From UHGV virus genome UHGV-0179250: 26,811 bases of DNA. One strand, written 5' to 3'. A program made the position numbers and the translations under genes. The notes under the pieces were generated by a model that searched no databases, was not told the DNA's origin, and worked only from the letters and a program-made list of their open reading frames with translations. Positions 4,517-26,564 of this stretch are shown one piece after another (the stretch's first letter is position 1; each line of letters starts with the position of its first letter). The DNA comes from a virus.

Positions 4517-4659
4517 TAATCATTCTCACTTGTGGGGGCGGGTCAAATCCCTGCAGCCCTGGCTGTCCGGGACCGCCCGCCAACCCTTCTTCGCATCGCC
4601 GCAGGTTCGAAAACTTTTTTTTGGGAATGCGATCAAACGATTGATAGGTAAAACCGATT

Positions 4660-5142
4660 ATGTCAGGACCCCCGAAAACCCCGCCACGCCTGCATTTGAT
4701 ACGAGGCAACCCCTCAAAGCGCCCCGTTAAAGACTCCAAAAAAACCGCTAAAAAGGACGAAAAAGGTCTCCCTAAAATTCCGCAGCATTTAGGGGCGCAG
4801 GGGAAGTACTGGTTCAGGCGAATGGCAGAGGAGCTGAATGCGGAAGGGATCATTTCTCAGCTTGATGCGCGTGCACTCGAGTTGCTGGTGGAAGCCTACA
4901 CCGAATACCGGCATCACTGCGAAATACTCGATGTTGAGGGTTATACCTACCGCACGGAAACGCAGAATGGCGATGTGATGATCAAGGCACATCCGGCTGC
5001 GGCGATGAAAGCGGATGCCTGGAAGCGGATCCGGGCGATGCTTGCAGAGTTTGGTATGTCACCGGCAAGCCGGGCGAAAGTAAATACCGCCGGACCGGAT
5101 GATGTTGATCCGCTGGCGGAACTTTTAAAAGCGAGAGACTGA
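4660..5142 (+). CDS. Terminase small subunit (P27 family)
   Basis: N-terminal ...LIRGNPSKRP... motif characteristic of the P27 family; stop overlaps the large terminase start. Confidence 0.8.
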   Translation: MSGPPKTPPRLHLIRGNPSKRPVKDSKKTAKKDEKGLPKIPQHLGAQGKYWFRRMAEELNAEGIISQLDARALELLVEAYTEYRHHCEILDVEGYTYRTETQNGDVMIKAHPAAAMKADAWKRIRAMLAEFGMSPASRAKVNTAGPDDVDPLAELLKARD

Positions 5143-6899
5143 TGGCAAAAGTGGCTGACGGGATCCGCTACGCCGAACGTGTTGTTGCAGGAGAAATTGT
5201 CGCTGGCGAATTTGTCCGTCTGGCCTGCCAGCGTTTTCTTGATGATCTGAAGTACGGCGAAGAGCGGGGGATTTATTTCAGTGAACCCCGTGCGCAGCAC
5301 ATCCTGAATTTCTACAAATTTGTGCCCCATGTAAAAGGGGCGCTGGCAGGTCAGCCCATTGAACTGATGGACTGGCATGTATTTATCCTCATTAATATTT
5401 TTGGTTTTGTCATTCCGCTGGTCAATGAAGAGACCGGGGAAGTTGTCATGCGCAGCGATGGCAGCAGACGTCCGGTGATGGTGCGCCGGTTCCGGACGGC
5501 GTACAACGAAGTCGCCCGTAAAAACGCAAAATCAACCCTGTCATCGGGTATCGGCCTGTATATGACGGGGGCAGATGGTGAAGGCGGTGCTGAGGTGTAT
5601 TCAGCCGCAACCACGCGTGACCAGGCCAGAATTGTGTTTGAAGACGCCAAAAATATGGTCAGAAAAGCCCGGTCGACACTCGGGCGATTGTTTGATTTCA
5701 ACAAGCTGGCGATTTACCAGGAGCAGAGCGCATCAAAATTTGAACCGCTTTCCTCGGATGCAAACAACCTGGACGGTCTGAACATCCACTGCGCCATTAT
5801 TGATGAGCTGCATGCACATAAAACCCGCGATGTGTGGGACGTTCTGGAAACGGCAACCGGTGCCCGTCTGCAGTCCCTGTTATTTGGTATCACCACGGCG
5901 GGCTTTAACAAGGAAGGGATTTGTTACGAGCAACGCGATTACGCCATCAAGGTATTGCGAGGCTATAACAGCGACGTGGAGGGCGCGGTAAAAGATGATT
6001 CCTACTTTGCGATTATTTACACGCTCGATGAGGGAGATGATCCGTTTGATGAAACGGTCTGGCAGAAAGCGAATCCCGGACTGGGCATCTGTAAACGCTG
6101 GGATGATCTGCGTCGTCTGGCGAAAAAAGCGAAAGAACAGGTCTCTGCGCGGGTGAATTTTTTTACCAAACACATGAATGTGTGGGTAACAGCAGAGTCT
6201 GCCTGGATGGACATGATTAAGTGGGAGAAGTGTGAATACATTGCCCCACGACATGAGCTGAAAACGTATCCCATGTGGGTCGGCGTTGACCTTGCTCATA
6301 AGATTGATATCTGTGCGGCGGCAAAACTCTGGCGAACGGATAACGGGCATGTTCATGCCGATTTTAAATTCTGGCTTCCGGAAGGACGGCTGGAACGATG
6401 CTCGCGGCAGCAGGCAGAACTTTACCGGAAGTGGGCGGAGATGGATAAGCTCATCCTGACGGATGGTGATGTTATCGATCATGCTCAGATAAAAAGTGAC
6501 TTACTGGAATGGATTGGCGGTGAAAACCTCAGGGAACTGGGATTTGACCCGTGGAGTGCAATGCAGTTCAGTCTGGCTCTGGCTGAAGAAGGGATATCGC
6601 TGGTGGAAGTTCCGCAGACGGTCCGCAATCTGTCAGAGGCCATGAAGGAAACGGAATCACTGGTCTATGCCGGGCGTTTCCATCACAGCAATCACCCGGT
6701 CATGAACTGGATGATGTCTAACGTTACGGTAAAACCGGACAAAAACGACAATATCTTCCCGAACAAATCCACGCCTGAAGCCAAAATCGACGGCCCTGTT
6801 GCGATGTTTACAGCAATGAGCCGGATGCTGGTCAATGGCGGTGAACCGGAGCCGGATCTGTCTGAACACCTGATTAGTGTTGGTATCCGCTCGCTTTAA
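5142..6899 (+). CDS. Terminase large subunit
   Basis: 585 aa; position between small terminase and portal; ATPase-like N-terminal half and nuclease-like C-terminal half by composition. Confidence 0.9.
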
Positions 6900-19419: not shown

Positions 19420-19833
19420 ATGATGATTAATGTTAACGGGCGACCCGTGTCGACCGGGGCTTCGAACGACCTTCTGACGCGTGCTGTGATTATTTCGCTT
19501 TTTACCTGGCGGCGTGCCGGGCGGGATGATGATGCACCGCAGATATTTGGATGGTGGGGGGATACCTGGCCTGCGGTTCAGAATGATCGCACGGGGTCGC
19601 GTCTGTATCTGTTGCGACGCAGCAAGCTGACAAATAAAACCCCGCAGCTTGCCAGAGATTATGCCCGTGAGGCGCTGGCGTGGATGGTGGAGGATGGTGT
19701 TGCTTCCCGTCTTGATATTAACGCTGTCCGGACCGGGACAGACTCGCTGACACTTGCTATTACCATTTACCAGCGTGACGGCAATATTCACAACATTATT
19801 TTTGATGATATCTGGAGTGAACTGAATGGCTGA
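19420..19833 (+). CDS. Baseplate protein, GP46 family
   Basis: 137 aa; position between spike and J-like protein in Mu-like order. Confidence 0.7.
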   Translation: MMINVNGRPVSTGASNDLLTRAVIISLFTWRRAGRDDDAPQIFGWWGDTWPAVQNDRTGSRLYLLRRSKLTNKTPQLARDYAREALAWMVEDGVASRLDINAVRTGTDSLTLAITIYQRDGNIHNIIFDDIWSELNG

Positions 19834-20908
19834 CAGTCAGTTTTATCGCCCCGGCCTCCCGCAACTTATTTCTATGATCCGGAGCGATTTATTAACCCGC
19901 TTTGAGCAGGATACGCTGCTTCGTCGTATGGATGCGGAAGTGTATGCCCGTGTACAGGCTGCAGCCGTACACACGTTATACGGGTATATCGATTATCTTG
20001 CCAGAAATCTGTTGCCGGACATGTGTGATGAAGACTGGTTGTACCGGCACGCCAGAATCAAACGCTGCCCGCGAAAAGATGCGGTGGCAGCCCGGGGATT
20101 TGTGCGCTGGGATGGCGTAGAGGGGACGCCGGTATTGCCAGCGGGAACGCAGATCCAGCGTGATGATCAGGTGACCTTCACCACGACGGCGACGGTGACC
20201 GCAGCCGATGGTCTTCTCCGGGTGCCTGTTGTGGCAGACGAACCGGGATCGGCGGGGAATACGGATGATGGTATTGCCATGCAGCTGGGAACACCCGTCA
20301 GTGGTCTGCCGTCCACAGGGTACGCAGACACCATTACAGACGGTGAAGATATTGAAAATCTGGAAATATGGCGTGCCCGCGTTATGGAACGTTATTACTA
20401 CATTCCACAGGGGGGCGCAGACCCTGATTATGTTATCTGGGCGAAAGAAGTTCAGGGTATTAACCGTGCATGGACTTTCAGACACTGGAAAGGGATTGGA
20501 ACGGTTGGCGTGATGGTGGCGACAAACGATCCGGAACACCCGGCCCCGGATGAAAGCGTGATTAACGCAGTCAGGGACCACATCCTTCCTCTGGCACCTG
20601 TTGCCGGAAGCGGATTGTATGTATTCGGTGCCACAGAAAAAGTCATCCCGATGACGATTGCGTTATCGAAAGACACACCGCAGATCAGGACTGCAATAAA
20701 AGCAGAACTGAATGCGCTGATGTTCCGGGATGGTGTGCCGGAAGGGCGCATGTATCTGTCCAGAATCAGCGAGGCTATCAGTTTATCTGCAGGCGAGGTG
20801 GCCCATAGACTCATCGACCCTTCATCGGATATTGACCTGGGGGAAACTGAGCTTCCGGTACTCGGGGAGATCACATGGCAGGCTTATGATCCGGCAAGGA
20901 GTAAATAA
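19826..20908 (+). CDS. Baseplate J-like protein (Mu gp47-like)
   Basis: 360 aa; position and size typical. Confidence 0.8.
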   Translation: MADSQFYRPGLPQLISMIRSDLLTRFEQDTLLRRMDAEVYARVQAAAVHTLYGYIDYLARNLLPDMCDEDWLYRHARIKRCPRKDAVAARGFVRWDGVEGTPVLPAGTQIQRDDQVTFTTTATVTAADGLLRVPVVADEPGSAGNTDDGIAMQLGTPVSGLPSTGYADTITDGEDIENLEIWRARVMERYYYIPQGGADPDYVIWAKEVQGINRAWTFRHWKGIGTVGVMVATNDPEHPAPDESVINAVRDHILPLAPVAGSGLYVFGATEKVIPMTIALSKDTPQIRTAIKAELNALMFRDGVPEGRMYLSRISEAISLSAGEVAHRLIDPSSDIDLGETELPVLGEITWQAYDPARSK

Positions 20909-21498
20909 TGGATACGTTACAGGATGATTATACAAAATTGTTATATGGCCTGATGCCTCCGGGGCCTGCATGGTCAGATACTGACGGCGTACTTGACGGT
21001 CTGGCACCATCGCTTGTGCGTGTTCACCAGCGGGCTGATGAACTGGTGATTGAAATCGATCCCGGTCAGTCAACAGAGCTGATTGAACGTTATGAAGAAT
21101 TGTATGGTTTGCCTGACACCTGTTCCCCTGTCGGGAGTCAGACATTACGCCAGCGTCAGCAACGGCTGGAAGCAAAAGCTAATGTAGCTGGCGGCATAAA
21201 TGAGCAGTTTTTTCTGGATCAGCTTGAGGCACTGGGATATACCGGCGTGACGATCGAACAGTTCCAGAATCTGGACGCAAGCCCAGATCCGGAATGGGGA
21301 GATCGCTGGCGTTATTTCTGGCGTGTGACGTTACCAGTGGATGCTGGCGCTCAGTGGCAGACATGTACGGATGCCTGCAACACACCGATTCGGACGTGGG
21401 GTGATACGATTGCGGAGTGCGTGATTAATAAATTATGTCCGTCGCATACCGTTGTTTTATTTTCCTATCCAGATGAGGCTGAAGATGCACAGGATTGA
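20908..21498 (+). CDS. Baseplate/tail protein, Mu gp48-like (DUF2313 / YmfQ-like)
   Basis: 196 aa; immediately precedes the tail-fibre gene. Confidence 0.65.
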   Translation: MDTLQDDYTKLLYGLMPPGPAWSDTDGVLDGLAPSLVRVHQRADELVIEIDPGQSTELIERYEELYGLPDTCSPVGSQTLRQRQQRLEAKANVAGGINEQFFLDQLEALGYTGVTIEQFQNLDASPDPEWGDRWRYFWRVTLPVDAGAQWQTCTDACNTPIRTWGDTIAECVINKLCPSHTVVLFSYPDEAEDAQD

Positions 21499-22504
21499 TA
21501 CGCTGACTGCGGTAAAAGATAAGTTTGGTCCGGGTAAGAACGGATTTACTGACGGAAATATTCGGACGGGGCGTCTTGCCACCTGGCTGAACAGTGCCAT
21601 GTGGGATGCCATTCAGGAGGAAATGTGCGCCGTTATTGAGAGGGCCGGGATAGAACTGAATAAAGAAGAACACGATCAGCTATATAAAGCCATATTGTTG
21701 CTGGCAGGTGGTGTGATTAACGAAGTGGCATTGCTGGCAAAAAATAATCTTTCGGATGTGGAAGACAAGGATGAGGCTGTTGAAAACCTCGGATTAAAAC
21801 CCACGGTGGACAAGGCAAAAAATGCCGTTCAGCGTGATGGTGACACCATGACCGGAGAACTAAAAATCCGTGGTGTTAATGCGCTGAGGATTTTCAACGA
21901 CGCTTTTGGCCTGATTTTTCGTCGTTCGGAAGAGTTCCTGCACCTTATCCCTACCAGTGAAGGTCAGGGCGAAAACGGTGATATCGGCCCATTAAGGCCA
22001 TTTGCTATAAATCTGAGAACAGGTGCTATATCTGTCAGCCACGGGGCCAAAATTGATGGTGGGCTGGCGCTTGGTACAGATAACGCGCTGGGTGGAAACT
22101 CAATTGCTTTCGGGGATAACGATACCGGCCTGAAACAGAATGGTGATGGCCTGCTGGATGTTTATGCCAATAGCGTGCATGTGTTGCGTTTTCAGGCTGG
22201 CAGTATCCAGAGTAATAAACCTGTAAACGTTACCGGGCGGGTAACACCGTCAGACTACGGAAACTTTGATGCCCGTTACCAGACCAAATCAGGGGGCGTG
22301 CAGAATTTTCAGTACACCAGTGAGGTGTTTTACAACCCTGGTGGGAATGAGCGCAGCTGGACGTTTCGGGCACCTTCTGGTTGTGTTTTGTCAGGCATTA
22401 ATGTTCAGGACACTGGCAGTAACTCTGCAGATAATATCGGTGGCGTGTATTACAAACAGGCTCAGATTTATATCAATGGTGCATGGCGATCCGTATCAGG
22501 TTAA
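21485..22504 (+). CDS. Tail fibre protein (short fibre, Mu gpS position)
   Basis: About 339 aa, Gly/Asn-rich C-terminus; start MHRIDTL with GAGG RBS; followed by a Tfa chaperone. Confidence 0.65.
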   Translation: MHRIDTLTAVKDKFGPGKNGFTDGNIRTGRLATWLNSAMWDAIQEEMCAVIERAGIELNKEEHDQLYKAILLLAGGVINEVALLAKNNLSDVEDKDEAVENLGLKPTVDKAKNAVQRDGDTMTGELKIRGVNALRIFNDAFGLIFRRSEEFLHLIPTSEGQGENGDIGPLRPFAINLRTGAISVSHGAKIDGGLALGTDNALGGNSIAFGDNDTGLKQNGDGLLDVYANSVHVLRFQAGSIQSNKPVNVTGRVTPSDYGNFDARYQTKSGGVQNFQYTSEVFYNPGGNERSWTFRAPSGCVLSGINVQDTGSNSADNIGGVYYKQAQIYINGAWRSVSG

Positions 22505-22517
22505 TTAAGGAGAAATA

Positions 22518-23048
22518 ATGGAACTCGTAAACGTTACGCGTTACTACCCTGAAGATATGCCTTATGGTGAAGGCATTCAGTATTTCCGTAGTGAAGACGG
22601 GCAGGATTTTTATGAATCACTGGATAAGTTCACGAAGAAATACAAGCTGTGCACGCATCCTGAAACCGGCATTATTTATTCCATGGCGGAAGATGTATCC
22701 CGCCTTTATCCCGTTGGTTTTACCATTGTGGAAGTGGATGAACTACCGGAAGGATTTTGCATTGAAGCCCGCTGGTATTATAAAGACGGTGAAGTGCTGC
22801 CGGTCCCTGTTGACTACCGGCAGCAGGCAGAGTCGGAGCGTGCACGTCTTACTGCGATTGCCGAACGGGAAATATCCGATAAGAAGACGGATTTACTTCT
22901 GGGAATCATCAGTGATGAAGAAAAAGAAAAGCTGACAGCCTGGCGCATTTACGCGAAATCGCTGCAGGCGATGGATTTCAGCACCATCACTGATAAAGTC
23001 TCATATAACGCCATTGAATGGCCCGTCTCTCCGGAAGCCTCTTCCTGA
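22518..23048 (+). CDS. Tail fibre assembly protein (Tfa family)
   Basis: 176 aa ending ...AIEWPVSPEASS, the C-terminal signature of Tfa/gpG-type chaperones; strong RBS. Confidence 0.75.
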   Translation: MELVNVTRYYPEDMPYGEGIQYFRSEDGQDFYESLDKFTKKYKLCTHPETGIIYSMAEDVSRLYPVGFTIVEVDELPEGFCIEARWYYKDGEVLPVPVDYRQQAESERARLTAIAEREISDKKTDLLLGIISDEEKEKLTAWRIYAKSLQAMDFSTITDKVSYNAIEWPVSPEASS

Positions 23049-23071
23049 TTTAATTTATCGCGAGAAAAACT

Positions 23072-25993
23072 ATGTCTGTAGTGATATCAGGTGCGCTGAT
23101 TGATGGCGCAGGCATCCCCATGTCCGGATGCCACATAATTCTGAAATCCCGGGTAAACACGTCAGAAGTGGTGATGCGCACAGTTGCTGATGTGGTGACA
23201 GGAAACTGTGGCGAGTACTGTTTTAAGGCGCAGACCGGAAAATACTGCGTATATCTGAAACAGGACTGGCGCGACGAGTACTGTGTTGGCGACATTGCCG
23301 TATACGACGATTCAAAGCCCGGCACGCTGAACGACTTTCTGACTGCCCTTGATGAAGGCGACCTCAAACCCGACGTGGTGAAACGCTTCGAAGAAATGTT
23401 GGCGCAGGCGCAGCAGAGCGCGGAAGCGGCAGCGGAAAGCGAACGACAGTCCGGGCAACACGCAGCTGATGCGCAGAAGATTAAGGATGATTGCCAGATG
23501 CTGGCGGATAACGTACAGCAGAATGCAGAAGCCGTTGCCGAAGATAAACAGCGCGTTGCACAGCTGGCCTCAGAAGTTGAGCAGAACGCCGGGCAGGTAC
23601 AGCAGGGTGTGCAGAGTGTTACAGATGCAGTAAAGCAGGCTCAACAGGCAGCAGATGACTCAGCATCCAGCGCAGAGGAATCAAAAAACAATGCGGATAA
23701 CGCCGCCCTGAGCGAGCAGAATGCGAAAAGTTGCGCTGATAATGCTGCCGGAAGTGCACAGCAGACCGCACAGGATGTGAAGGCAACCGCAGCGGCGCGT
23801 GATGATGCAGAGCGTTTTGCTGATGAAGCCAGAAAGAATGCGGTTGCAACGGCTGCGGACAGGGAATCCACTGCGGAGGATGCGAAACAAACCGGTCAGA
23901 ATGCCGCCGCGGCCGCCATAAGTGCTCAGGAGGCGAAAGACGCGGCCGGGCATGTGCAGGGATTCATTCATGACCACCTTTCAGTATCAACCCGTTATTC
24001 GGTAACAGAGGCGAACCTTCAGCTACAGGCGTTGAGAATAAACAGCGGGCGCTACGAGGGGCTGTGGCGCTACCTGAATGCGAACGGTGGTATCAACTGG
24101 TATTTGCTGTTTCTTGCCGTGTATGAAAGTGAAGGAAAATGCTTTTCCCTCAGTGACCGTATGACAATTTGCGAAAAGGCGTTAAGACTGGGGCTTGTGG
24201 TTCCGTTTATGACCAGTTGCCGTTATGAAGCCGGGCAGCGCCTGACAATAAACGGCACGCTTTTTTTTGTTAATATCGCGGGCACCACCGGGGAAACGTT
24301 GCCTGATATCAGCTCTGTAGCCCCCGGAGATTTTGTCCGGACCGGCTCCGCTGTGCTGGAGTGCCTGAAAAGCCCCTCAAACCGAATCCCGGCTGCATGG
24401 CAGTATTTTTTTCTGGATGTGGCTCCGGATTTGTATACCCCCGTTGCGCCGGACTCCACGGACAGCTACCCGGCGCTCTGGTTCGCCTGCATTGCTGAAT
24501 TTGCGGACAGTGCCTGGTTACAGGAGCCAGCCGGAATCGGCGGGTCCAGCCGCTGGGAAATCATAAAACAGGTGGCAAAGTTCAATATCGTTGCTGAAAT
24601 AAATCCGGTGGCCAGTCTGGTAAACGTATTCCAGCACAATCTTGCACCCGGTGACCGGGCTTATGCACAGTGTTTTTGTCAGGATAACGCAGAGGTTTAT
24701 GCTGGTTTACGTGCACTGAAAACACTGGCTGACCTTGCCGGAGATACCACTGCTGCAACTGAATATACCGCTGCCATGAAAACCATCAGGGCTGGCCTGC
24801 TTGCGTTGTTTGTACCTGAACAAAAACGGTTCCTGACGTATTACAACGAGACGGATTACCCGGCAGAGCCTGGTGAAGGGCGTTTTGTTGATAAGGACCG
24901 TTTTTCTGTGGCCCCGTGGCGCTTTGGGGTGCTGGAAACACAGGAAGAAGTGGAACGGTACGGCAGGCAGGTTCTGGACGCCATACAGAGTGCTTACCCG
25001 GACCTGTTCACGGCAAATTACGACGGCATTGATACGTTTGCCATGAGTGATTTTTTTGCTTTTGTGGCAAAGGTTACCACTTCTCAGACGGCAGCCACGG
25101 CTGCCATCAGACGCCTGCAAATCCGGGCGACATCTGCCGTCACGGTGGCCGACGTTGCCGCCGCCATATCCGTTACAGCCTGGGGAAAAATCCCACAGTT
25201 TCGTGCCTGTGATTTTATGCGCATCAACGGGCATTCCGTGCTCGGAGGGGGCGATATCACGCTGGGCGCGGCGGCCACAATGGAGCCACAGAGTGATATT
25301 CGCGACAGGACGGAAGGCAGGCTGGCACTTCCCGATGCCTTCGGTTTTGGGCGTATATTCAACACAAACGAAACTGTCCGCTTTGACTCAGAAAATGATT
25401 TTCTGGTGTGGGTAAAACAGGTCACGCCAGGAGAATATTTTGTTGAGGGTGGCAATAAAATTATACCCAATGTGCTGTTCAGCGGGATTGTCAGTATTCG
25501 GTGGATTGAGTCCAGATATGCCACACCGAGTCCGATAAATACAGCAAAGGCGATTATTTTCTATGGTGTTAATGGCCACATTTATTACAACCGCTACTGG
25601 ACCACAGGAAATGGTTATCTCATTGACTGGGAATCACTGAAGGTAACCTCGCAGGACATTATTGCTCTTCTGTCCGGCCTTGCTCCCGGAGCTACAGATA
25701 CCTGGTACGGCACTGGCAGCCTGATACTGGCGGCATATAACGGCCAGGGAAACGCAGACCCGGACCGCAGAATAAAGCGAGGTTACAGCTATCCTGGGTC
25801 ACGTCTGAGTGCGGTTGAATTGATGTGTTACGGTACGACCGGGACCGGGGTTAAATACAACGGCAGTGTTTCTGTGTATGTTCAGGGTTCCGGTGGCGGA
25901 ATGCCAGGCACATACCGGGCATTGTCGGGGAATGGACTGGGGTCTGCCGGTTCCGCCAGCGCCATGATTGGTCTGTTTATACGAGTTGCGTAG
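23072..25993 (+). CDS. Side tail fibre (lambda Stf-like N-terminal domain, Ala/Gln-rich coiled coil, large divergent C-terminal domain)
   Basis: N-terminus MSVVISGALIDGAGIPMSGCHIILKSRVNTSEV...DDSKPGTLNDFL parallels the lambda Stf N-terminal domain (from memory); about 180-aa Ala/Gln-rich repeat segment; C-terminal ~650 aa unrecognised. Confidence 0.75.
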   Translation: MSVVISGALIDGAGIPMSGCHIILKSRVNTSEVVMRTVADVVTGNCGEYCFKAQTGKYCVYLKQDWRDEYCVGDIAVYDDSKPGTLNDFLTALDEGDLKPDVVKRFEEMLAQAQQSAEAAAESERQSGQHAADAQKIKDDCQMLADNVQQNAEAVAEDKQRVAQLASEVEQNAGQVQQGVQSVTDAVKQAQQAADDSASSAEESKNNADNAALSEQNAKSCADNAAGSAQQTAQDVKATAAARDDAERFADEARKNAVATAADRESTAEDAKQTGQNAAAAAISAQEAKDAAGHVQGFIHDHLSVSTRYSVTEANLQLQALRINSGRYEGLWRYLNANGGINWYLLFLAVYESEGKCFSLSDRMTICEKALRLGLVVPFMTSCRYEAGQRLTINGTLFFVNIAGTTGETLPDISSVAPGDFVRTGSAVLECLKSPSNRIPAAWQYFFLDVAPDLYTPVAPDSTDSYPALWFACIAEFADSAWLQEPAGIGGSSRWEIIKQVAKFNIVAEINPVASLVNVFQHNLAPGDRAYAQCFCQDNAEVYAGLRALKTLADLAGDTTAATEYTAAMKTIRAGLLALFVPEQKRFLTYYNETDYPAEPGEGRFVDKDRFSVAPWRFGVLETQEEVERYGRQVLDAIQSAYPDLFTANYDGIDTFAMSDFFAFVAKVTTSQTAATAAIRRLQIRATSAVTVADVAAAISVTAWGKIPQFRACDFMRINGHSVLGGGDITLGAAATMEPQSDIRDRTEGRLALPDAFGFGRIFNTNETVRFDSENDFLVWVKQVTPGEYFVEGGNKIIPNVLFSGIVSIRWIESRYATPSPINTAKAIIFYGVNGHIYYNRYWTTGNGYLIDWESLKVTSQDIIALLSGLAPGATDTWYGTGSLILAAYNGQGNADPDRRIKRGYSYPGSRLSAVELMCYGTTGTGVKYNGSVSVYVQGSGGGMPGTYRALSGNGLGSAGSASAMIGLFIRVA

Positions 25994-26000
25994 GTGATTT

Positions 26001-26564
26001 ATGGAAGTAAAAAAAATCGAAAATGCGCGCTGGCTGGAAAGCGGCGCGATTGACTGCGACGTATTGTTTGAGGGGATGGACGAGGCCCTGCCGTATACAG
26101 CGACAGCAGACGATACCGCACCGACGGGCCAGCAAATCTGGCAGGAACTGCAAAGTGGCAAATGGGGTGAAATCGCCCCGTTTACAGTCACGCCTGAACT
26201 TATCGCAGCGGCAAAAGATGCCAAAAAGATGGAAATCGAGGCGTGGCGCACAGAACAGGAGGCACTGCCGTTCACGTTCGAATGGAATGGTCGCACCTGG
26301 AACGCTGGCCCCGACTCAATGGCTCGTCTTTATCCGGTGGTAATGGCTGCAAAATCTGATACGGCACGAACCGCCCTTGCGTGGGGCGACGCTGATAATC
26401 AACAGGTGAAACTGTCGATGCCGGAACTGGAAGAACTGGCAGCCGCGATGGCGCAGGCGCAGGTCGATCGCAACGCCGAGATTTATCGCCGTCAGCGAGA
26501 GATGAAGGATGAACTGAATAATCTGGAGGATTTGGCTTCAGTTCGAGTGTTTGACGTTACGTAA
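26001..26564 (+). CDS. Putative tail fibre chaperone-like protein (DUF4376-like)
   Basis: 187 aa directly after the large fibre gene; lacks the Tfa C-terminal EWP signature; motifs EAWRTEQEALPFTFEWNGRTWNAGPDS and RRQREMKDEL resemble DUF4376 proteins as I recall them. Confidence 0.45.
   Translation: MEVKKIENARWLESGAIDCDVLFEGMDEALPYTATADDTAPTGQQIWQELQSGKWGEIAPFTVTPELIAAAKDAKKMEIEAWRTEQEALPFTFEWNGRTWNAGPDSMARLYPVVMAAKSDTARTALAWGDADNQQVKLSMPELEELAAAMAQAQVDRNAEIYRRQREMKDELNNLEDLASVRVFDVT

Follow-up and report, generated by a model that had tools for sequence, protein, structure and literature searches.

To our knowledge, the characterised phage depolymerases almost all have a beta-helix or a beta-propeller fold, and depolymerase surveys and prediction tools have been trained on these folds. 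Predicted depolymerases with an alpha/alpha toroid are rare on phage receptor-binding proteins, that is, 11/984 and 29/~3,900 candidates (DepoScope; Klebsiella prophage survey), and DepoScope left the alpha/alpha toroids out because there were too few examples. The alpha/alpha-toroid reference folds listed in the Klebsiella prophage survey include lyases such as PL8.

The closest described relatives of the fibre analysed in this study are L56 of phage phiP27 (NP_543108, 490 aa) and tail3 of Rac-SA53 (1061 aa), both of PHROG 2636. The genes of these fibres occupy the same slot after a primary fibre and its Tfa, and each is followed by a DUF4376 gene. Phage lambda, whose side tail fibre Stf is a further relative, uses Tfa. 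The tip of lambda Stf resembles T4 gp37 and binds OmpC (Ur-lambda, PMC12617516), and the N-terminal domain of Stf forms a collar of 12 copies at the tail tip of this siphophage (PMC12617516). In the Vibrio myophage XM1, six gp40 trimers bind the neck via an N-terminal domain of ~100 residues (PMC10457771).

We analysed a stretch of DNA of 26,811 nucleotides (UHGV virus genome UHGV-0179250), which is called the window below. The window represents a phiP27-like, stx-negative prophage of E. coli, and its tail is contractile and Mu-like, as indicated by Baseplate_J, Mu Gp48 and sheath matches. In the fibre region, an uninterrupted reading frame from ATG to stop at 23072..25993 (+) codes for a fibre protein of 973 aa. 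A Caudo_TAP tail-fibre-assembly gene (22518..23048) ends 23 nt before this gene and goes with the other, upstream primary fibre, not with the 973-aa fibre. A DUF4376 gene (26001..26564) starts 7 nt after it. The 973-aa protein is built of four parts: an anchor, a stalk, a barrel and a tip. An identical protein is already public under the names 'tail fiber protein' and 'prophage tail fiber N-terminal domain-containing protein'.

Residues 1-134 (23072..23473, +) form a Stf-type N-terminal virion anchor. The PF08400 (phage_tail_N) profile matched this region from position 1 to 134 of 134 with 206 bits (gathering threshold 26.6; E 2e-61), which places the protein among the PF08400 Stf-type prophage tail fibres. 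The N-domain of lambda Stf (9e7m) also matched the anchor (E 1.3e-16), and the collar spike gp40 of XM1 (7kjk) matched aa 1-201 (E 1.9e-7). A lambda Stf in the strict sense has a gp37-like tip and a Tfa/Caudo_TAP gene (PF02413) directly downstream, and the present fibre has neither of the two. The name 'side' tail fibre is used by analogy with lambda.

The match to gp40 bears on the position of the fibre on the virion. We regard it as possible, if somewhat doubtful, that this is a fibre of the neck (collar) and not a baseplate or side tail fibre. The neck-attached gp40 is the sole solved homologue of the anchor from a contractile-tailed phage, the tail of the window is of the same contractile, Mu-like kind, and the gene directly upstream, together with a Caudo_TAP chaperone gene of its own, already provides a separate primary fibre. 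In contrast, the match to the lambda Stf N-domain is the stronger of the two, and the gene is grouped with baseplate and fibre genes. The position of the fibre is independent of the question of whether it carries an enzyme.

The anchor is followed by a presumably helical stalk at aa 135-295 (23474..23956, +), which is rich in Ala and Gln, free of proline, and possibly a trimeric coiled coil. The composition of aa 101-295 was 27% Ala, 13% Gln and 0% Pro. The sole database matches of the stalk were coiled-coil noise (Rad50, XRCC4-myosin), and the NCBIfam search likewise gave Rad50 coiled-coil noise only. An earlier note made from the letters of the window had described a 973-aa reading frame with a Stf-type N-terminus of ~100 aa and an Ala/Gln-rich coiled coil, and our results agree with it as to the reading frame, the N-terminal identity and the composition.

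Residues 728-973 (25253..25990, +) form the distal tip, presumably a receptor-binding knob of the L56/phrog_2636 type. This region of 246 aa matched positions 320-567/568 of phrog_2636 with E 1.6e-52, and it was 31% identical to the tip of phiP27 L56 (aa 228-490). The same module is present in three tandem copies in tail3 of Rac-SA53, and it also occurs in Goslar, Avunavirus and other fibres. Judged from these matches, the C-terminal 246 aa represent a tip module that recurs among fibres. A sequence search of the PDB found no tip relative with a solved structure. The DUF4376 gene downstream (26001..26564, +) codes for 187 aa and matched PF14301 with 60.1 bits (cutoff 25) as well as phrog_1141; it stands in the same position as L57 of phiP27. 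DUF4376 is given as a tail-fibre chaperone domain in the Alteromonas phages V22 and A5 (PMC10579305). By analogy, the product of this gene is presumed to be the chaperone of the tip.

The whole 973-aa protein matched phrog_2636 with E 1.7e-164 in 3 stretches. In the anchor and stalk, it shares 72% identity with L56 and 67% with tail3, and the identity of the tip is 31-46%. In L56, which lacks the barrel, the stalk is joined straight to the tip; in tail3, which also lacks it, the three tandem tip modules stand in its place. That is, by its anchor, stalk, tip, slot and DUF4376 neighbour the protein is a member of the phiP27 L56 type (PHROG 2636) with an insertion of ~430 aa. Since L56 manages with this anchor and tip alone, the barrel adds a function and does not serve as a scaffold.

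Residues 296-727 (23957..25252, +) are predicted to form this barrel, an (alpha/alpha)6-barrel of glycoside-hydrolase-like type. A first AF2 run on aa 295-973 with 7 sequences gave a pLDDT of 47 and left the tip unmodelled; as a weak pointer to the fold, the structural matches of this independent low-confidence model were likewise mostly (alpha/alpha)6 glycoside hydrolases and phosphorylases. With a deeper alignment from an exhaustive HMMER search, the model of aa 295-755 reached a pLDDT of 87 and a pTM of 0.85. The confident core of the barrel covers aa ~309-709, and the module ends at a conserved linker, FMRINGxSV. The structural matches of the model included MmpH (7qsj, second-best) and the GH15-type enzymes dextran dextrinase (9ju0), glucoamylase (1lf6) and glucodextranase (1ulv), to which the identity of the barrel is only ~10% with no significant sequence match. 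At the level of fold, the predicted model belongs to the six-hairpin glycoside hydrolases.

By sequence, the barrel corresponds to phrog_33169, which is labelled as of unknown function (E 1e-214). The family comprises 143 clusters among 1.84 billion representatives and occurs in several receptor-binding-protein architectures, in metagenomic phages as well as in E. coli, E. marmotae and Salmonella. A TAT signal, a ricin-B lectin domain or an F5/8-C domain is present in some of the remote members; others in the family have T7-tail-fibre N-domains, fibre repeats or K1-lyase_C. The profile PF22422 (MGH1-like/GH63-type) scored 25.2 bits with the full protein, below its cutoff of 27, and 27.4-27.6 bits with the excised barrel; the latter match covered only profile positions 176-267 of 356, a helical hairpin. 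Just 3/57 and 4/45 members of the barrel family matched PF22422. A profile of the stand-alone members weakly matched the GH78 enzyme RhaB (E 0.0036). The sequence search of the PDB with the whole protein, the tip and two barrel profiles (A2 and A3) returned noise or sub-threshold matches only beyond the N-terminal anchor. BFVD gave no convincing match to the barrel, the single significant one (E 2e-4, low TM) being an Alteromonas phage fibre. A characterised member of the family was not found in our literature searches.

We then consider the residues that are conserved in the barrel family. The DxxD motif D461-S-T-D464 (24452..24463, +; codons checked) is a candidate catalytic acid or sugar-binding pair. 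Among 58 family members, D461 is kept in 97% and D464 in 100%, and neither varies in the 45 distant members that stand alone, which share only ~20% identity with the fibre-borne members. The DNxE motif D538-N-A-E541 (24683..24694, +; codons checked) lies at the N-terminal end of one of the barrel helices. Its D538, N and E541 are conserved in 98%, 95% and 91% of the members, respectively, and the equivalents of D and E are invariant or at least 90% conserved in the 45 stand-alone members. Three further residues, D654, R681 and D694, are kept in about 86-93% of those members whose sequence extends to them.

In the DSSP string of the model, the conserved polar residues coincide with, or directly precede, the N-terminal end of every other helix. 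They would then all lie on the same face of the barrel, where the active site of six-hairpin enzymes is located. The endo-alpha-(1->4)-mannosidase MmpH has its acid pair, D47/D50, in a DxxD motif as well, and substitution of either Asp by Ala drastically reduces its activity (PMC9883506). The spacing of D47, D50, N101/F102 and E262 in MmpH is similar to that of D461, D464, F520/Q521 and D694 in the barrel; this likeness is only a suggestion drawn by analogy.

A loop of the barrel contains a beta-strand subdomain at aa 375-440 (24194..24391, +; strands 81-137 of the model), which is weakly similar to CBM5/12. The stand-alone members lack this insertion, and the rest of the barrel aligns with them at an hhalign probability of 99.9%. 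The family profile matched the chitin-binding domain of ChiA1 (1ed7) with E 0.018. CBM_5_12 (PF02839) scored 13-19 bits in 4/9 members, under the cutoff of 26.2, and gave no match with the present protein, whose insertion reads LECL in place of the W-E-Y of most members and lacks the aromatic residues typical of CBM5/12. In BFVD, the insertion gave many short, low-rmsd matches to phage fibre proteins. The sub-threshold assignment to CBM5/12 is therefore a lead only.

We think it probable that the fibre combines an anchor, a stalk, an enzyme and a tip, with the barrel acting as an endo-glycosidase on the surface polysaccharide of the host and setting the host range together with the tip. The virion anchor, the predicted CAZy-type fold and the slot of a receptor-binding protein are the features by which a phage depolymerase is recognised, and they occur together here. 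In the mechanism that we propose, the Stf-type N-domain would fix the fibre, presumably a trimer and the second fibre of this phiP27-like myophage, to the virion, and the Ala/Gln-rich coiled coil would serve as its stalk. Each chain would carry its own (alpha/alpha)6 barrel from a glycoside-hydrolase-like family outside the curated ones, with a small CBM-like beta insertion; we assume that a globular barrel fits in line in a trimeric fibre. The barrel would cleave the host surface polysaccharide endo-wise, the prime candidate being the O-antigen, and the cleavage would let the virion pass the glycan layer. The distal knob of the L56 type, whose folding the DUF4376 protein probably assists, would bind the cell surface, so that both activities together would determine the host range. 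We infer the trimeric state, the catalysis, its endo mode, the substrate and the way in which barrel and tip share the work.

The earlier note had treated the C-terminal region as one unrecognised domain of ~650 aa, rich in aromatic and acidic residues and ending in a Gly/Tyr-rich part. This view has to be divided: the region consists of two modules, of which the ~430-aa barrel (phrog_33169) is indeed without a recognised function, whereas the 246-aa tip is of a known type. The compositions were described correctly, as aa 296-727 contain 12% aromatic and 10% acidic residues and the last 100 aa contain 20% Gly and 8% Tyr. Its idea that an enzymatic domain is combined with a binding module is supported with respect to the fold, the conserved carboxylates, the tailspike-slot context and a separate tip homologous to fibre tips.

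The barrel might also be a catalytically dead, lectin-like carbohydrate-binding module that offers a second receptor-binding site for avidity or specificity, which we consider unlikely. Enzyme-derived folds in phage fibres often serve binding only, the barrel contains the CBM-like insertion, and the matches to curated GH families were sub-threshold or borderline. In contrast, the two carboxylate motifs are near-invariant from the fibre-borne members to the remote stand-alone members. Such constancy is more in line with catalysis than with binding, since a binding site tends to change as specificity changes. Moreover, in Salmonella, relatives of the barrel with 46-52% identity to it take up the tailspike slot in epsilon15-like prophages and there replace the known depolymerase-type body of the tailspike. 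It is more improbable still that the barrel has another chemistry or target, that is, that it is a lyase, a transglycosylase, a phosphorylase, an enzyme of the epimerase/cyclase type or a hydrolase of peptidoglycan or periplasmic glycan.

The segment 23894..26509 (+), which contains the end of the stalk, the barrel, the tip and most of the chaperone gene, is a horizontally exchanged cassette. Over its 2616 bp it is 98.5% identical to DNA of the Mu-like (com/mom) prophages carried by the E. coli strains RM11911 (O45:H16) and XJ34 (bovine); the flanking DNA is just 73-77% identical or unmatched to these prophages. The identity switches at nt ~23894 (aa ~275), and we place the recombination breakpoint there. 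The anchor region (22896-23589) shows 92.8% DNA identity to phiP27 L56. The word 'chimeric' in the earlier note thus proved apt, with a phiP27 L56-like anchor and a Mu-like part from aa 275 to 973 and in the next gene. Among the complete genomes bearing the cassette, 3/5 are O45:H16 and may be clonal. The occurrence of the cassette in phiP27-like and Mu-like prophages is a clean and recent case of the joint exchange of enzyme, tip and chaperone.

In RM11911 and XJ34, PGAP labelled only ~120 aa of the counterpart as 'prophage tail fiber N-terminal domain-containing protein, pseudo, missing C-terminus' and annotated nothing under the barrel and tip, but we rejected the notion of a decaying remnant as extremely improbable, since the reading frames are intact in the window and in RM11911 (874 aa), the near-identity of the cassette has been kept across two unrelated phage types, and the 90% cluster of the protein has 48 members with many full-length 973-aa copies. 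The RefSeq label is an annotation artefact due to the lack of a full-length reference.

The barrel family has no covering Pfam model and no solved relative that is detectable by sequence, and its PHROG is labelled 'unknown function', and the RefSeq pipeline leaves it without annotation or marks it as a pseudogene. If active, the barrel would represent a new class of enzymes for serotype-specific glycan degradation, of use in the prediction and engineering of host range, and a candidate new CAZy family. As a compact module of ~430 aa that is probably movable between fibres, it would suit fibre engineering. We tentatively propose, with somewhat less than even confidence, that the barrel founds a new DxxD/DNxE glycoside-hydrolase family with a fold nearest to MmpH/GH15, and a class of phage depolymerases that has gone unrecognised. 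This class would be mobile between Stf-type fibres, epsilon15-type tailspikes and the fibres of large phages, and would stand here in line between stalk and knob on a fibre that is possibly attached to the neck. If this is true, one fibre is both enzyme and adhesin.

Compared with the known systems, the fibre shares with Ur-lambda Stf (9e7m) the homologous N-terminal anchor, a long stalk next to it, the role of an accessory fibre and a chaperone of its own encoded downstream. It differs in that the tip is of the L56 type and not gp37-like, an enzyme-like barrel is inserted, the chaperone is a DUF4376 protein and not Caudo_TAP, and the virion is that of a myophage. With gp40 of XM1, a simple Mu-like contractile phage, it shares the homologous N-domain and a helical stalk; gp40 is attached to the neck, only its residues 1-126 are built in 7kjk, and similarity was not detected past aa ~200.

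The Salmonella homologues of the barrel (P0003-P0005) have N-terminal anchors that are 76-80% identical to those of the SPN1S tailspike (76%) and the phiV10 tail fibre, and their genes lie in the epsilon15-like tailspike slot, between the genes for the injection proteins and those for lysis. The epsilon15-like tailspikes have another catalytic body, by annotation a right-handed beta-helix in one related record, whereas P0003-P0005 have the barrel after the anchor. In the structural comparison, barrels of the size of MmpH align almost fully to the core of the fibre barrel. MmpH and the GH15-type enzymes are cellular and not virion-borne, unlike the barrel of the fibre. With the alpha/alpha-toroid depolymerases, the barrel shares an all-helical toroid on a phage receptor-binding protein; unlike the PL8-type toroid lyases, it resembles the hydrolases of the GH15, MmpH and GH63 types.

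The 973-aa fibre gene is an uninterrupted ORF at 23072..25993 (+), located at the end of a late operon. In 5' to 3' order, this operon contains Baseplate_J (19826-20908), a protein similar to Mu Gp48 (20908-21498), a first fibre at about 21485-22504 that matches phrog_6859 and is gp37-trimer-like, the assembly protein Caudo_TAP (22518-23048), and the 973-aa gene, directly after which lies a DUF4376 gene (26001-26564). The mechanical ORF of the first fibre (21452-22504) starts with TTG at 21452. Since its PHROG and phiP27 homology begins only at residue 12, translation probably starts from an ATG at about 21485, within the end of the Gp48-like gene. The identical 973-aa protein is present in public collections, where it is named only "tail fiber protein" or "prophage tail fiber N-terminal domain-containing protein".

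PF08400 completely covers aa 1-134 of the fibre (E 2e-61). Homologues of this anchor are the N-domain of lambda Stf (9e7m, E 1.3e-16) and, more weakly related, the collar spike gp40 of the Vibrio myophage XM1 (7kjk, E 1.9e-7, aa 1-201). The region after the anchor was split cleanly by PHROG: aa 295-727 matched phrog_33169, "unknown function" (E 1e-214), and aa 728-973 matched the last 250 positions of phrog_2636, "tail fiber protein" (E 1.6e-52). What the earlier note had said on composition was correct. As measured here, the stalk (aa 101-295) has 27% Ala, 13% Gln and no Pro, aromatic and acidic residues are abundant in the middle part, and the last 100 residues have 20% Gly and 8% Tyr.

The fibre L56 of phiP27 (490 aa) occupies the same slot. 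L56 was 72% identical to aa 1-238 and 31% identical to aa 728-973, but no alignment was found between aa 238 and 728. As L56 aligns to both ends only, the fibre of the window is an L56-type fibre with a module of about 430 aa placed between stalk and tip. The fibre tail3 of Rac-SA53 (L008 917-4099) shares the anchor and carries the tip module in three tandem copies (aa 402-507, 529-671 and 799-1061), indicating that the tip is a stackable unit. Each copy opens with the motif Q-x-D-I/L-Y-D-x-T-E/A-G-R/C-L/V-A-L/I-P-G-x-F-G-F/Y-G. Goslar, Avunavirus and other fibres have the tip module as well. Thus the last 246 aa, which the earlier note counted as part of an unrecognised C-terminal domain of about 650 aa, represent a fibre-tip unit that recurs.

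An AlphaFold model of the barrel, built on a 57-sequence alignment, was confident (pLDDT 87, pTM 0.85; residues 15-415 above 90) and showed an all-helical barrel, in which model residues 81-137 form a beta subdomain. The matches to this model were dextran dextrinase 9ju0 (21.4), the endo-mannosidase MmpH 7qsj (21.2), bacterial glucoamylase 1lf6 (19.9) and glucodextranase 1ulv (19.4), followed by GH78, GH63 (YgjK), GH37, GH76, GH8, GH116 and others (14-17), with an identity to the barrel of about 10%. No polysaccharide lyase was present among the 60 matches listed. In sequence, PF22422 scored 27.4-27.6 bits with the excised domain (cutoff 27; helical hairpin only) and 25.2 bits with the whole protein, and a profile of stand-alone members gave a weak link to GH78 RhaB (E 0.0036). 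From these fold matches and weak sequence links, the barrel is filed at the fold level as six-hairpin glycoside-hydrolase-like, and not under any curated family. The beta insertion (aa 375-440) resembled CBM5/12 below threshold and matched small domains of many phage fibre proteins (BFVD).

We counted residues kept in at least 80% of 58 barrel members. These include Y344, Y385, D449, D461, S462, D464 (100%), Y466, W482, F520, Q521, D538, N539, E541 and G545; D654, R681 and D694 were kept in about 86-93% of the sequences reaching the C-terminal half. The DxxD (D461/D464) and DNxE (D538/E541) motifs were invariant or more than 90% conserved even in remote stand-alone proteins (330-400 aa, about 20% identity, hhalign probability 99.9%), which have no beta insertion. 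According to the DSSP string of the model, the conserved polar residues lie at the N-terminus of every other helix or just ahead of it (helices starting at model residues 49, 171, 242, 365 and 398). We infer that this puts them on one face of the barrel, the one where six-hairpin enzymes have their active-site funnel. In MmpH, substitution of either D47 or D50 of its DxxD pair with Ala drastically decreased the activity (PMC9883506), and the parallel with the DxxD of the barrel is suggestive.

A word-indexed search found only nine relatives, in which the barrel follows three different N-termini (Stf-type anchors, a 'MTVSTEVDHNEYTGNGVTT' anchor, or a short leader) and precedes differing C-termini. 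When 1.84 billion representatives were searched exhaustively with an HMMER profile, 143 clusters were obtained at E <= 1e-3, 32 of which scored E <= 1e-30 and spanned the entire module. Pfam recognized almost none of the family (PF22422 weakly, in 3/57 and 4/45 members). A few members also had a T7 tail-fibre N-domain, fibre repeats, K1-lyase_C, DUF1833, F5/8-C, ricin-B or a TAT signal. One homologue (P0006) is encoded on a phage-like scaffold of 129 kb, where gp34/gp38-like fibre genes, DUF7941 and DUF4376 surround it. On a phage-like metagenome contig, the gene of a 407-aa stand-alone barrel retaining the beta insertion (L011 4905-6128) stands by itself on the opposite strand, with DNA polymerase A and Prim-Pol genes on either side; the module thus exists also as a free non-fibre protein. 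Another homologue, P0003 of a Salmonella contig, was 46% identical to the window protein overall and 52% across the barrel. Its gene lies between injection-protein genes and a holin/GH19 endolysin cassette, which is the place that the tailspike has in an epsilon15-like prophage, and its first 270 or so aa shared 76% identity with the SPN1S tailspike and 79% with the phiV10 fibre. That is, the barrel stands where those phages have the catalytic tailspike body.

We consider that the barrel is probably an active endo-glycosidase acting on a surface polysaccharide and the knob an adhesin. The anchor would hold a presumed trimer on the virion, the coiled coil would form the stalk, and each chain would contribute one barrel and return to the axis via the conserved 'FMRINGxSV' linker, ending in an L56-type knob whose folding is probably aided by the DUF4376 protein. 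The K1F endosialidase offers a precedent, in which every chain has a globular catalytic domain that precedes a trimeric distal part. It is rather unlikely that the barrel is a catalytically inert binding domain, and another chemistry or target is less likely still. The helper role of DUF4376 is suggested by literature on Alteromonas phages (PMC10579305) and by its co-inheritance with the tip in phiP27. The attachment site of the fibre is a question separate from the enzymatic one: the lambda Stf homologue of the anchor builds a tail-tip collar (PMC12617516), and XM1 gp40, the sole solved anchor homologue in a contractile phage, is a neck fibre (PMC10457771).

The prophage of the window combines a head of the HK97 type with a contractile tail like that of Mu. 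Of positions 1-23000, 77% aligned to phiP27, with an identity of 94.5%. By blastn, 20900-22306 (88.6%) and 22896-23589 (92.8%) were phiP27-like, and 23894-26509, which contains the codons of aa 275-973 and the larger part of the DUF4376 gene, was 98.5% identical to prophages of E. coli RM11911 and XJ34. Barrel, tip and chaperone thus move together in a single 2.6-kb cassette whose breakpoint lies in the stalk. The RM11911 and XJ34 prophages resemble Mu and have com and mom downstream. The cassette was found in only five of 5,426 complete E. coli genomes, three of them O45:H16 environmental STEC. Its prophages sit in and truncate gspE (RM11911, L001 12404-12721) and mdtO (XJ34, L002 9398-10471), which fits random transposition and independent lysogenisation events. 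RefSeq/PGAP labels the fibre homologue there (L001 7458-10055, L002 4458-7055) only as a "pseudo, missing C-terminus" of about 120 aa and has no annotation where the barrel and tip are encoded; the intact 874-aa ORF contradicts this label. The upstream first fibre is likewise cut to a short pseudo fragment, and there seems to be a systematic gap in how mosaic fibre genes are annotated.

Other parts of the window also differ from phiP27. The segment 22307-23023 holds the C-terminus of the first fibre and its Caudo_TAP gene. It is not phiP27-like and was 77% identical to the RM11911/XJ34 Mu-like prophage, a second and older exchange within the fibre region. The terminase genes (small, 4660-5142; large, 5142-6899) had no DNA match to phiP27 across 4582-6857, and their flanks (the HNH gene and the portal-to-baseplate block) were 89-96% identical, which suggests that the packaging module was replaced. 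Between the DNA methylase and the holin, phiP27 has tRNA-Ile, tRNA-Arg and the stx2e A/B genes; the window instead has, at 483-1302, tRNA-Gly(tcc) (761-835) and an unassigned 114-aa ORF (953-1297) without a Pfam match. It is a stx-negative phiP27-like prophage with other cargo in the toxin slot.

Depolymerase domains on phage receptor-binding proteins are already known. The earlier note had proposed an enzymatic domain joined to a binding module; the modelled fold, the conserved residues and the gene context agree with this, the barrel being a putative enzyme. Alpha/alpha toroids are acknowledged among phage depolymerases, as rare (about 1%), and were left out of predictor training. The alpha/alpha-toroid reference folds listed in a published survey are lyases, whereas the present barrel is GH15/MmpH-like. 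It further differs from known depolymerases in belonging to an uncurated family, in its internal CBM-like insertion, and in its mounting in the middle of the fibre, ahead of a separate tip.
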